From the sequence record OL362276.1: a stretch of 39,803 nucleotides of DNA; one strand, written 5' to 3'. This DNA is from Escherichia phage HC13. The notes beneath the pieces were generated by a model. The model saw nothing but the letters and a program-made list of their open reading frames with translations. It was not told the origin of the DNA and searched no databases. This document shows, piece after piece, positions 22,925 to 39,803 of this stretch (position 1 is its first letter; the number at the start of each line of letters is the position of its first letter). A program made the position numbers and the translations under genes.

Positions 22925-22927
22925 TTG

Positions 22928-22972
22928 AAACCCCTTGGGTGCCTTCGGGTGCTTGAGGGGTTTTTTTTTTTG
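22928..22972 (+). terminator. T-phi-like terminator after the capsid gene
   Basis: AACCCCTTGGG...CTTGAGGGG stem followed by a run of 11 T. Resembles T7 T-phi (AACCCCTTGGGGCCTCTAAACGGGTCTTGAGGGGTTTTTTG). Confidence 0.75.
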
Positions 22973-22986
22973 CTTAAGGAGGGACT

Positions 22987-26248: not shown

Positions 26249-26272
26249 CTTATTGAAGGGCCTATAGATTTA

Positions 26273-26296
26273 CCTTAACTATCACTATAGGGACTA
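26273..26296 (+). promoter_or_regulatory. Phage RNAP promoter (TTAACTATCACTATAGGGA, +1 about 26290)
   Basis: Promoter-family match. Position equals T7 phi13. Flanked by the inverted repeat GGGCCTATAG / CTATAGGCCC. Confidence 0.8.
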
Positions 26297-26324
26297 TAGG
26301 CCCTTAAGGTCATAAGGAGACTTT

Positions 26325-36791: not shown

Positions 36792-36800
36792 ATCTATTAA

Positions 36801-36855
36801 GTGTTAGACTCAAGGTCATTACTGTATGTAGTGGCCTTTATGGTTAACACTAACT
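36801..36855 (+). promoter_or_regulatory. Putative RNase III processing hairpin (R18.5-like)
   Basis: GUGUUAGAC...AAGGUCAU / GUGGCCUU...GGUUAACAC. Same upper stem as 6022 and 13150; lower stem differs but still pairs (covariation). Confidence 0.45.
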
Positions 36856-36901: not shown

Positions 36902-37351
36902 ATGCTCGAATTTTTAAAGAGAGCGGCTCCGTGGTTACTTGCAGCAGTGATGTTTGCTGGTGGCTACCACACCGCTAACAATAAGTGGGAGGCTAAGGTC
37001 AATGCAGAATACACCACGAATCTTAAGGCATCGGAGGATACAAGACTTGCTGTCCAAGCTGAAGTCAACAAAGTGTCCAAACGGTTTCAGGACGAAATGT
37101 CCTCGCTGGAAGGCAGCACTGATAGGATTATTGCTGACCTTCAGTCTGACAATAAGCGGTTGCGCATCCGAGTCAAACCAACGAGTGGAACCACGCAAAG
37201 TGACGGTCGATGCTTCATTGATGGTTACGCCGAACTTGACGAACGAGATGCTAAACGTCTTATCGCCATCGGAGTGAAAGGAGACAAGTGGATTAAGGCC
37301 CTTCAGGACACTGTGAGAGCCTTGCAGCAAGATAAGGAGGTGAAGCATTGA
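36902..37351 (+). CDS. 18.5: Rz-like i-spanin (gene 18.5)
   Basis: Aligns with T7 gp18.5 (MLEFL, N-terminal [45 protein letters not shown]). Confidence 0.88.
37047..37277 (+). CDS. Candidate Rz1-like o-spanin lipoprotein embedded in Rz (+1 frame); start codon uncertain
   Basis: Embedded +1-frame ORF with signal-like [23 protein letters not shown] and lipobox Cys codon at 37161-37163. No in-frame ATG near the signal, so TTG at 37047 is only a guess. The mature part is not proline-rich. Confidence 0.4.
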   Translation: MLSKLKSTKCPNGFRTKCPRWKAALIGLLLTFSLTISGCASESNQRVEPRKVTVDASLMVTPNLTNEMLNVLSPSE

Positions 37352-39111
37352 GTAAAGACTTAGTGGCGCGTCAGGCGCTAATGACTGCACGTATGAAGGC
37401 AGACTTCGTGTTCTTCATCTTCGTTCTCTGGAAAGCACTAAGCCTTCCGGTTCCAACCCGCTGCCAGATAGATATGTGTAAGAAGCTGGCTGCTGGTGAT
37501 AATCGCCGCTTCATCCTTCAGGCTTTCCGTGGTATTGGCAAGTCATTTCTGACCTGTGGCTTTGTGGTCTGGAAGCTATGGAACAACCCAGACTTGAAGT
37601 TCATGATTGTGTCGGCCTCAAAGGAGCGAGCCGATGCTAACTCCATCTTCATCAAGCGAATCATCGACCTCATGCCTCAGCTTCAGGAACTCAAACCTAA
37701 GCAGGGACAGCGAGATGCGGTTATTAGCTTCGACGTGGGACCTGCCAAGCCAGACCACTCACCTTCGGTTAAGTCCGTTGGTATCACTGGTCAGTTGACT
37801 GGTAGTCGTGCTGACATCCTGATTGCCGATGACGTGGAGGTTCCGAACAACTCAGCGACTCAGGCTGCACGAGACCGTCTATCAGAGCTTGTGAAAGAGT
37901 TCGACGCTATCCTGAAGCCGGGAGGTACGATCATCTATCTGGGTACTCCTCAGAACGAGATGACCCTGTACCGTGAGCTGGAAGGTCGTGGGTACACCAC
38001 TACTATCTGGCCCGCTCGTTATCCACGCGACAGGAAGGACTGGCAGTCTTACGGCGACCGTCTGGCTCCTATGCTTCAGGAAGAGCTGGAAGAGGACCCT
38101 GAGTCCTTCTACTGGCGTCCGACTGATGAAGTACGCTTCGATGATACGGACCTGAAGGAACGTGAGCTGTCCTACGGTAAAGCTGGCTTCGCTCTACAGT
38201 TCATGCTTAACCCGAACCTGAGTGATGCCGAGAAGTACCCTCTGAAGCTCCGTGACCTTATCGTAGCCGACTTGGACCCAGCGTCCAGCCCAATGGTCTA
38301 CCAATGGTTGCCGAACCCTCAGAACAAGCGTGAGGACGTTCCTAACGTTGGACTCATGGGTGACTCGTACCACACGTATCAGACTGTAGGTTCTGCCTTC
38401 AGTTCTTACACCCAGAAGATTCTGGTCATTGACCCTAGTGGTCGTGGTAAGGATGAGACTGGTTATGCGGTACTGTACCAGCTCAACGGCTACATCTTCG
38501 CTATGGAAGTTGGTGGTATGCGTGGTGGGTATGAAGACTCTACGCTGGAAGCACTGGCTAAGATTGGCCGTAAGTGGAAGGTCAACGAATACGTCATTGA
38601 GGGTAACTTCGGTGATGGTATGTACCTTGAGCTATTCAAGCCTGTAGCGGCCCGTATACATCCTGCTGCTGTAACTGAAGTGAAGAGTAAGGGTCAGAAA
38701 GAACTCCGCATCTGTGACGTTCTGGAGCCTATCATGGGGTCTCACCGACTTATCATCAACGCTGCTGCTATCGTCCAAGACTACCAGTCGGCCTCTGATA
38801 AGGATGGTGTTCGTAACCCTATCTACTCTCTCTTCTACCAGATGACACGTATCTCTCGTGAACGTGGAGCCTTGGCACACGATGACCGACTTGATGCGCT
38901 GGCTATCGGTGTACAGTTCTTCGTTGAGTCTATGGCTAAGGATGCCAACAAAGGCGAACGTGAAGTCACTGAGGAGTGGCTGGAGGAACAGATGGAGAAC
39001 CCACGGAAAGGCTTCGAGTCCATCCACACTGAGTTCTGGGACAATGGGGTCCGGGTAACTCACGATACGGACGACGAGCTGGGACTAGGGTCATACGTTA
39101 CGTTCCACTAG
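37348..39111 (+). CDS. 19: Terminase large subunit (gene 19)
   Basis: Collinear with T7 gp19 ([93 protein letters not shown]). TTG start with SD AAGGAGG seven nt upstream, overlapping the Rz stop. Confidence 0.96.
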
Positions 39112-39205
39112 CTGAATGAATAACTATAGGCGAAAACTGAGTTAATAAGCAGTTAGTAACCTATAGTTACTACCAGTCTAACCTACTGTTTTACAAGGAG
39201 TTTGG

Positions 39206-39229
39206 ACTTAACTATCACTATAGGGAAGA
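39206..39229 (+). promoter_or_regulatory. Phage RNAP promoter (TTAACTATCACTATAGGGAAGA, +1 about 39223), phiOR-like
   Basis: Promoter-family match near the right end, where T7 has phiOR. Confidence 0.8.
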
Positions 39230-39407
39230 CCCCCGGTTACTTATAGTATTACTATAGTGAATATACATATGCAGACTTTATGCAAGACCTTAGGAGGCAG
39301 ACTCCGAGTTCTTACCTAAGGCTTGCACCGATGGGAGGAGGTGATATTAATCATAATACCTCCAATACAGATAGTCACAGACCATAGATACAGGAGGTAT
39401 GTAGCAT

Positions 39408-39566
39408 ATGGCAAAGACCAAAGCTGTACTTAAAGCTCTGGCGACCAATCGAGCTACATACAGGTTTCTTGCTGCTGTTCTACTTGCTGCTGGCGCTACT
39501 GCTGGAAGTCAGTGGGTCGGGTGGGTCGAGACTCTCGTATGTTCTCTGGTGTCTGAGTGTCGTTAA
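39408..39566 (+). CDS. Small hydrophobic protein (52 aa), gene 19.5-like by position
   Basis: My own translation: MAKTKAVLKALATNRATYRFLAAVLLAAGATAGSQWVGWVETLVCSLVSECR. SD AGGAGG upstream. Confidence 0.4.
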   Translation: MAKTKAVLKALATNRATYRFLAAVLLAAGATAGSQWVGWVETLVCSLVSECR

Positions 39567-39723
39567 CGCCGTAATGGTAACAATCAACGAAAGTAAGACC
39601 TAAGGTCAGTTCATAGCTGACGCTACTCTACTGACCTTAGCTCCTGTAGTCAAGGACTTTAGGTAACACCTTAATAGAAGCTCACTTAGGGTCATCCTAC
39701 TTATTGGTCTATCCTAGTGTCGC

Positions 39724-39768
39724 CTGACCTACGGTCCTTGACCTACAGTGGCTGTGGCCTACAGTAGT
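39724..39768 (+). repeat. Right-end short direct repeats (CCTACGGTC / CCTACAGTG / CCTACAGTAG)
   Basis: Read directly. Same repeat family as the left-end array at 185-315, consistent with the repeats flanking the terminal redundancy in T7-like genomes. Confidence 0.5.
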
Positions 39769-39803
39769 GACGATGAGTTTTGGACCAAAAGTTTGAGACC
39801 ACA

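Follow-up and report, generated by a model that had tools for sequence, protein, structure and literature searches.

A probable conserved RNA hairpin between the terminase gene and the phiOR promoter of Escherichia phage HC13 and related Kayfunaviruses

Between its terminase gene and its last phage promoter, the genome of Escherichia phage HC13 (OL362276.1) carries a non-coding interval in which two arms resembling a promoter core face each other as an inverted repeat. This raises the question whether the repeat is a product of chance, a remnant of a promoter or a functional element, and, if functional, whether it acts as DNA or as RNA. A sequence-only reading had offered a pause or decoy site for RNA polymerase, a packaging or replication element, or a terminator of read-through late transcripts. 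The window analysed here, a stretch of 39,803 nucleotides, spans the genome from its left end up to the expected start of the right terminal repeat. Its last 904 bases have matches in about 220 phage records, of which almost all are from Kayfunavirus, with identities of up to 99.8%, and by sequence the window is a Kayfunavirus genome (K1F-like, T7 group).

The gene order at the right end (gene 19, phage promoter, gene 19.5) is collinear with that of T7. Gene 19, an open reading frame on the plus strand at 37348–39111 whose homologous region is annotated in relatives as coding for the terminase large subunit, ends with the stop codon UAG; gene 19.5 occupies 39408–39566, and the genes of these phages all lie on the plus strand. 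The K1F-type promoter consensus fits ten sites in the window. A promoter matrix built from these ten promoters over the 23-nt consensus (–17 to +6) scores the last of them, TAACTATCACTATAGGGAAGA at 39206–39228 (plus strand), with 35.1 bits. This promoter is called phiOR in the EcoDS1 annotation and plainly a promoter in those of ASO2B and CR44b. At the opposite end of the window, ATCTGTA at 178–184 directly follows the terminal repeat of about 177 bp, where EcoDS1 has a "concatemeric junction" (177–184); by its sequence, it is a class II pause-type signal of the T7 group.

Inverted repeat and predicted stem-loop

The repeat had been described as a 9-bp perfect one; it exists and is 100% complementary, but the description was one base short. 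TAACTATAGG at 39121–39130 pairs with CCTATAGTTA at 39160–39169 over 10 bp without mismatch, 29 nt apart, and the 9-mers reported earlier are actually at 39122–39130 and 39160–39168. Its placement between the gene 19 stop codon (39109–39111) and the +1 position of phiOR (G39223) was right. The spacer agrees in length with the loop of about 30 nt that had been reported, but instead of being open it folds into an internal loop and an upper helix. The window contains three inverted repeats that are perfect over 10 bp or more and enclose a loop of 3–60 nt, as compared to 1.7 ± 1.2 in dinucleotide shuffles. Because 20% of the shuffles reach the count of 3, the 10-bp repeat by itself is not beyond chance; the part that exceeds chance, as judged from the sequences of relatives, is the conservation of the repeat through covariation.

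The likeness of the arms to the promoter core was confirmed for this genome (AACTATAGG versus CACTATAGG, 8 of 9 positions). The window has 14 copies of ACTATAG, where about five are expected; nine copies are inside promoters, and five lie within 39123–39258, which accounts for four of the five non-promoter copies. Two further copies had been claimed downstream of phiOR. One exact site is there, the palindrome ACTATAGT at 39251–39258, counted once per strand, but the second, CTTATAGT at 39241–39248, is just a near-copy. The exact site belongs to a degenerate promoter-like copy, CTTATAGTATTACTATAGTGAAT (39241–39263, plus strand; 9.8 bits, the third-best non-promoter site), which lies 34 nt downstream of phiOR and matches it at 13 of 15 core positions. 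Its ACTATAG is variable among relatives (ACTGTAG in K1F, EcoDS1, ASO2B and CR44b, unrelated in other clades), the degenerate copy occurs only in the K1F lineage, with unrelated sequence in its place in other clades, and it is probably outside the hairpin element. A sequence that resembles the promoter core, GCACTATAGACC, also occurs in T7 in the interval from gene 19 to phiOR (39154–39165 in T7), with unrelated sequence at the aligned position in T3 and K11; on this alignment, the likeness looks coincidental.

According to the folding predictions, the inverted repeat is the main helix of an RNA stem-loop of about 72 nt (39109–39180), all parts of which are read on the plus strand. In minimum-free-energy folds, a basal helix is formed by UAGCUG (39109–39114), with the gene 19 stop codon as its first element, and CAG-U-CUA (39174–39180). 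The 5' arm of the main helix, UAACUAUAGG (39121–39130), is the left arm of the repeat and is placed by the repeat search and by covariation; the 3' arm, CCUAUAGUUA (39160–39169), is the right arm, placed by the repeat search and by pairing probabilities. Above it lies a predicted 3×4 internal loop with GAA (39132–39134) on one strand and AGUA (39155–39158) on the other, both assigned from the sarcin-ricin (bulged-G) consensus. The upper helix (39135–39154), which appears in the folds and in the covariance-model and RNAalifold alignments, pairs 39135–39139 with 39150–39154 and is followed by an A·G mismatch (39140/39149) and an apical loop of 8 nt (39141–39148). Three of the ten pairs of the repeat stem are G-C, and in the model, main helix, internal loop and upper helix together amount to about 20 stacked layers.

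In HC13 itself, two mismatches weaken the element, a C·A on top of the main helix and the A·G in the upper helix. In a long read-through RNA of HC13, the main helix has an equilibrium probability of 0.3–0.4, and pairing of its 3' arm with the phiOR core (8 bp) has a probability of 0.45–0.66; for a typical relative, the main helix reaches 0.97–0.98. Pairing to the phiOR core was considered as a conserved function and rejected, as it is present here and the IMM002 and SH4 clades do not share it. A small hairpin within the right arm, TAGTAAC-CTATA-GTTACTA, was likewise discarded, being not conserved in other clades. A scan of 38800–39803 against Rfam at a permissive threshold gave a sole match of 15 bits (E 9.9), which is a chance match and lies outside the element; no family came near its gathering threshold.

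Conservation of base-pairing in relatives

Homologous regions were gathered from GenBank phages, IMG/VR and metagenomes and comprise 24 distinct versions, which represent at least five lineages of Kayfunavirus; about 45 of some 215 GenBank relatives were compared, and the metagenome and IMG/VR scans contributed few new variants. The folds of all 24 distinct versions, at –13 to –28 kcal/mol, share one architecture: a weak basal helix including the stop codon, an asymmetric internal loop, a main helix of 10–12 bp, a small internal loop, an upper helix of 4–6 bp and an apical loop of 8 nt. The weak basal helix is only partly conserved: it is 90% paired, and its one compensatory pair changes from U-A to C-G in the IMM002 clade.

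Since a plain MAFFT alignment of all clades misaligned the 3' arm, pairs were counted in an alignment of 34 sequences (21 of them distinct) to a covariance model built from the K1F and IMM002 lineages. In this alignment, which was itself fitted to the structure, the 11-pair main helix is 98.3% paired across the 21 distinct relatives, and the structure as a whole has 94.6% of its cells paired, with six pairs, or 19 cells, changed on both sides. Double compensatory changes occur in 5 of the 11 main-helix pairs, and three pairs changed on one side alone; the 11 one-sided cells of the main helix consist of seven G·U, three C·A (pair 23-51, in the lineage of the window) and one U·U. None of 500 shuffles reached the observed covariation score or paired fraction, and sliding the partners by 1–3 columns left just 11–50% pairing. 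The two helices were also returned by RNAalifold, independently and with –2.25 as the covariation term. Across lineages, column identity amounts to about 0.68 in 39112–39211, as compared to 0.94–0.98 for phiOR and the block that follows it.

The comparison of sequences indicates that selection keeps the base-pairing of the helix and not its sequence, and we regard it as very probable that the element is a conserved RNA hairpin. The idea of a functional non-coding element on read-through late transcripts is supported by the pairing kept in relatives. Conservation in relatives, named beforehand as a test, is found as well, in pairing rather than in promoter-like sequence.

Between clades, the arms differ in sequence throughout. 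They read TAACTATGGG/CCCATAGTTA in IMM002, ATACCTACGCA/TGCG(T/C)TAGGTAT in SH4, Dev2 and EclP26, where the helix of the SH4 clade carries a one-base bulge, and GTACCG/CGGTAC in GW1; Kc166A has a 16-bp stem of yet another sequence. The CTATAG state of the arms is confined to the K1F and IMM002 lineages, and we infer from these sequences that the arms look like a promoter core only in certain lineages, as one state of a covarying helix, and that this likeness is not the functional feature. In CR44b, where the 5' half of the element has given way to a homing endonuclease gene, the remaining 3' half folds into a new hairpin of 9 bp at the same spot.

The interval is subject to further variation. 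Some Kayfunaviruses have a 3.8B-like gene for an HNH homing endonuclease inserted after the gene 19 stop codon and before phiOR; in CR44b it covers 279–695 of the extracted segment (L008), where the replacement hairpin has the arms GGUAGUUAC/GUGACUACC, and similar inserts are present in L022–L024. A further regional variant is represented by the metagenome contigs L062 and L063, in which the promoter ahead of the conserved TTATGCAAGACCTTAGGAG block has GGGATGGGGGGACCGGGGGGACC after it and, upstream of it, a different sequence with a hairpin of its own. A 34-codon open reading frame of K1F, CKV1F_gp41 (852–956 of the extracted K1F RefSeq segment), starts in the apical loop and crosses phiOR; its ATG is absent here and in the SH4 clade a stop follows after four codons, and on these sequences it is probably spurious.

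Downstream of the promoter, about 100 bp transcribed from phiOR (39229–39331) show identities of 0.88–0.97 across Kayfunavirus lineages, which exceeds that of the end of gene 19. Within this block, GGTTACTTATAGTA resembles GGTTACTATATAG of T7 and CTACTATATAGG of T3 at the same offset, independent of the promoter core of each phage, and 39282–39294 can form a 12-bp bulged hairpin with 39315–39326, labelled "terminator" in the ASO2B annotation. The block may be related to an origin or to packaging. The motif TGAATGAATA, shared with T7 downstream of phiOR, was dismissed as a candidate, ATGAATA being not enriched in the window (4 copies, 3.5 expected). Past gene 19.5 and ahead of the terminal repeat, another strong inverted repeat, GACCTAAGGTCAGT ... 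ACTGACCTTAGCTC (12 bp, perfect), is located at 39597–39643; conservation in this region is 0.87–0.94.

The GAA/AGUA internal loop

The 3×4 internal loop, with GAA (39132–39134) opposite AGUA (39155–39158), has the sequence signature of a sarcin-ricin (bulged-G, S-turn) motif. AGUA is typical of this signature, of which 6×5 motif groups also exist (PMC13085918). The strand polarity fits the motif, as AGUA adjoins the upper helix with its 5' side and GAA with its 3' side; with AGUA/GAA in a 4×3 arrangement, this polarity and Watson-Crick flanks, the loop qualifies by sequence as a putative sarcin-ricin motif. None of its seven bases varies among the K1F, IMM002, SH4 and EclP26 clades and Berlinvirus, and the flanking helices differ: the loop-closing pair is U-A, U·G, C-G (phage HHH), G-C (Berlinvirus) or C·A (this window); pair 32-41 of the upper helix, in most relatives C-G, is A-U in Salmonella phage ST64 and A·G in this window; and pair 29-44, a C-G in Kayfunavirus, is reversed to G-C in Berlinvirus. 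The apical loop is fairly conserved (AUGAAUAA/AUGUAUAA).

Berlinvirus genomes (BA14, FE44 and relatives in IMG/VR) have GCGG-GAA-AGGUGC...GCACUU-AGUA-CCGC right after the gene 19 stop codon. With the covariance model of the K1F and IMM002 lineages, this position scores 28 bits in FE44 (E 9e-5) and 25 bits in BA14 (E 4e-4), and the same model gave no match to T7, T3, K11 and five other genera. A degenerate motif scan of IMG/VR contigs of T7-like size added only Berlinvirus and two unrelated matches (L112 and L137); matches on shorter or longer contigs were presumed to be due to chance and left out. Within Kayfunavirus, Kc166A, GW1 and EcpYZU01 have the hairpin and lack GAA/AGUA.

The likeness to known sarcin-ricin motifs, such as those of 23S rRNA helix 95 and the 6×5 motif of the HCV IRES (PMC13085918), comprises the 3×4 GAA/AGUA composition, the polarity and the covarying Watson-Crick closure. 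The candidate motif described here differs from them in its location in the 3' region of a phage mRNA and in being flipped relative to the hairpin loop, and it is known from its sequence alone.

Role of the hairpin and alternative readings

We read the element as RNA because of the G·U pairs on the plus strand, the plus orientation of all genes, the RNA-type loop and the features that speak against a cruciform. One-sided substitutions read as G·U on the plus strand at six sites and as C·A at one, a pattern that fits a single-stranded structure of the plus strand. When minimum free energies of both strands were compared, 16 of 24 sequences favoured the plus strand, and the sequence of this window folds better as minus strand; the asymmetry in favour of the plus strand is at most suggestive.

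As to its role, we lean towards an mRNA 3'-end element that affects the stability or processing of the terminase message. The hairpin would be transcribed from the plus strand as part of the 3' untranslated end of gene 19 mRNA, on late transcripts reading toward phiOR. It would act post-transcriptionally as a 3'-end barrier or processing site, protecting the message from 3' exonucleases, and its structured internal loop might offer a recognition site to RNase III or to some other RNA-binding protein. The hairpin would then determine how stable gene 19 mRNA is, and hence its yield, and would separate this message from the phiOR transcription unit. T7 has one terminator, ten RNase III sites and polycistronic stable mRNAs (PMC6938266), which is the setting where such hairpins act. 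In a T7 insertion screen, most intergenic loci at the genome ends were non-essential (PMC11482910); any role is likely to be quantitative.

In all Studiervirinae genera examined except gh-1, a strong hairpin is found within about 25 nt of the gene 19 stop codon, never with a U-run. T7, T3 and K11 have UUAUGCA-N7-UGCAUAA and a second small hairpin after gene 19, and Jarilo, MP2, Mysterion and ICP3 have long stems of unrelated sequence; in gh-1, with the promoter just about 33 nt further on, the interval folds weakly (–5.7 kcal/mol). Stem-loops behind a stop codon that control the decay of the upstream mRNA and are not terminators are known as 3' stabiliser hairpins or retroregulation sites, for example lambda sib, and the gene 19 hairpin resembles such sites in its position directly downstream of the stop codon.

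The RNase III sites of the T7 group offer a second comparison. Those of T7 were reportedly described by Dunn and Studier in 1983 as a series from R0.3 to R18.5, and T7 is not known to have such a site after gene 19. The gene 19 hairpin resembles these sites in being an intergenic hairpin with internal loops, directly past a gene on a polycistronic plus-strand message; cleavage or trimming would leave a protective 3' stem-loop, and a total of about 20 predicted layers would be in the substrate range. Set against the two or so helical turns of a T7-type site, the folds give 6 + 11 + 3 non-canonical + 5–6 layers, if these stack coaxially. It deviates from the canonical bipartite form in lacking the upper stem of 10–11 bp, the small loop and the typical internal loops.

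The window itself contains R0.3-, R0.5- and R18.5-like hairpins at 698–749, 1619–1667 and about 36799–36850, the first two at the expected positions in the early region and the last between genes 18 and 18.5. These three have an upper stem of 10–11 bp, a loop of 4–7 nt and internal loops of the GACU.. / ..CUGAUAG or CUUUAUG type; none of them is annotated in EcoDS1. In addition, a 12-bp perfect inverted repeat at 26256–26305, AAGGGCCTATAG ... CTATAGGCCCTT, encloses the whole phi13 promoter in its 26-nt interior and, by analogy, is probably an R13-type RNase III site of HC13. In T7 R13, the 5' arm pairs with the promoter core CACUAUAGGGAGA at phi13, and in the window counterpart the arms that enclose phi13 contain CUAUAG. 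The gene 19 hairpin is similar to R13 in that its 3' arm is able to pair with the phiOR core; it differs in that this pairing is just 8 bp long and restricted to the K1F lineage, the conserved partner of the 3' arm being the upstream arm.

The proposed effect on mRNA stability or processing has to be weighed against a more specific use of the same RNA, in which a GAA/AGUA S-turn on a rigid helix, as suggested by sequence, would serve as a protein-binding operator and not as a passive barrier, for example in autogenous control of the terminase or in linking late RNA to the phiOR/packaging region. This is consistent with an invariant loop between covarying helices in two genera, with an apical loop that is fairly conserved too, and with the frequent use of sarcin-ricin motifs as protein- or RNA-docking modules (PMC13085918). 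However, no candidate binding protein was identified, Kc166A, GW1, EcpYZU01 and the genomes with an endonuclease insertion keep a hairpin without the motif, other genera have unrelated hairpins at the same position, and the motif was called from sequence; we therefore hold an operator to be unlikely. It is quite unlikely, too, that the element is a Kayfunavirus/Berlinvirus protein-binding module which tunes terminase synthesis or tethers late RNA, and to which the phiOR-core pairing of the K1F lineage adds a switch, with read-through and promoter-proximal RNA as its two states.

Action at the level of DNA, as a cruciform, a single-stranded DNA hairpin or a site for a dimeric protein involved in a secondary origin at phiOR or in concatemer processing or packaging, deserves consideration on account of the distance of only 37 nt to phiOR and the near invariance of this promoter and of about 100 bp after it. 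Chung and Hinkle reportedly tied T7 phiOR in 1990 to a secondary origin and to the packaging of plasmids containing the concatemer junction, and G·T wobbles are possible in DNA hairpins as well. Extrusion of a cruciform, however, is disfavoured by the 29-nt spacer, the one-base bulge of the SH4 clade and the wobble pairs, and the wholesale replacement of the arms between clades speaks against a sequence-specific DNA-binding site. Moreover, the conserved GAA/AGUA is a motif of RNA type, RNA or DNA synthesis begun at phiOR leaves out the element owing to its upstream position, and intergenic insertions in the end region of T7 were mostly tolerated (PMC11482910). With arm sequences that drift while complementarity stays, the earlier suggestion of a packaging or replication element is disfavoured, and we consider a DNA-level role very unlikely.

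Little likelihood is left, either, for a signal that makes the phage RNA polymerase pause or terminate and so halts read-through ahead of phiOR. A hairpin directly upstream of a promoter that needs to fire independently would suit such a signal, and a U-rich stretch, UGUUUUAC at 39187–39194, follows some distance past it. This stretch, however, is not conserved in the IMM002, SH4 and GW1 clades. The stem is A/U-rich and followed by CUACCAGUCUAACC, with no abutting U-run in any clade, and a terminator scan of 38800–39803 found none (sigma-70 promoter-like sites were at chance level), whereas the terminators that the genome does have are classic G+C hairpins followed by U-runs. The class I terminator T-phi of T7-like phages is likewise a hairpin downstream of a late gene, but here (about 22927–22975) it has a G+C-rich stem and a long U-run. 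With an ATCTGTT-type sequence on the non-template strand as the criterion for class II signals, no ATCTGTW was present on the plus strand in 39112–39205. Neither the terminator nor the class II pause site put forward earlier is supported by these data.

That the arms are decayed promoter copies without a function of their own, or a chance repeat, is highly improbable: TAACTATAGG does equal the promoter sequence TAACTAT[CACTAT]AGG minus one 6-nt unit, ACTATAG is locally in excess and a 10-bp repeat alone is within chance, but covariation and conservation across clades and genera largely refute this reading, the arms lack the –17 to –9 specificity region and score –3.8 (left) and –16.1 bits (right, minus strand) where real promoters score 33.2–37.6, and the promoter-like state is limited to the K1F and IMM002 lineages. 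The decoy proposed for the arms is not supported, given the same scores and the arms of the SH4, EclP26, Kc166A and GW1 clades, which are without CTATAG.

The genomes of the T7 group are among the best annotated of all phages; the element is nonetheless unannotated, being unmarked in the curated records of T7, T3, K11, BA14 and EcoDS1. For experimental work, the conserved S-turn loop, as predicted, would provide a concrete handle, and the promoter-like look of the arms appears to be a red herring. The interval between gene 19 and phiOR is exactly where cargo gets inserted, and the engineered systems concerned include K1F-type therapeutic phages and T7 expression parts. If the hairpin does govern the stability or processing of the terminase mRNA, it would represent a further post-transcriptional control point in a widely engineered model system.
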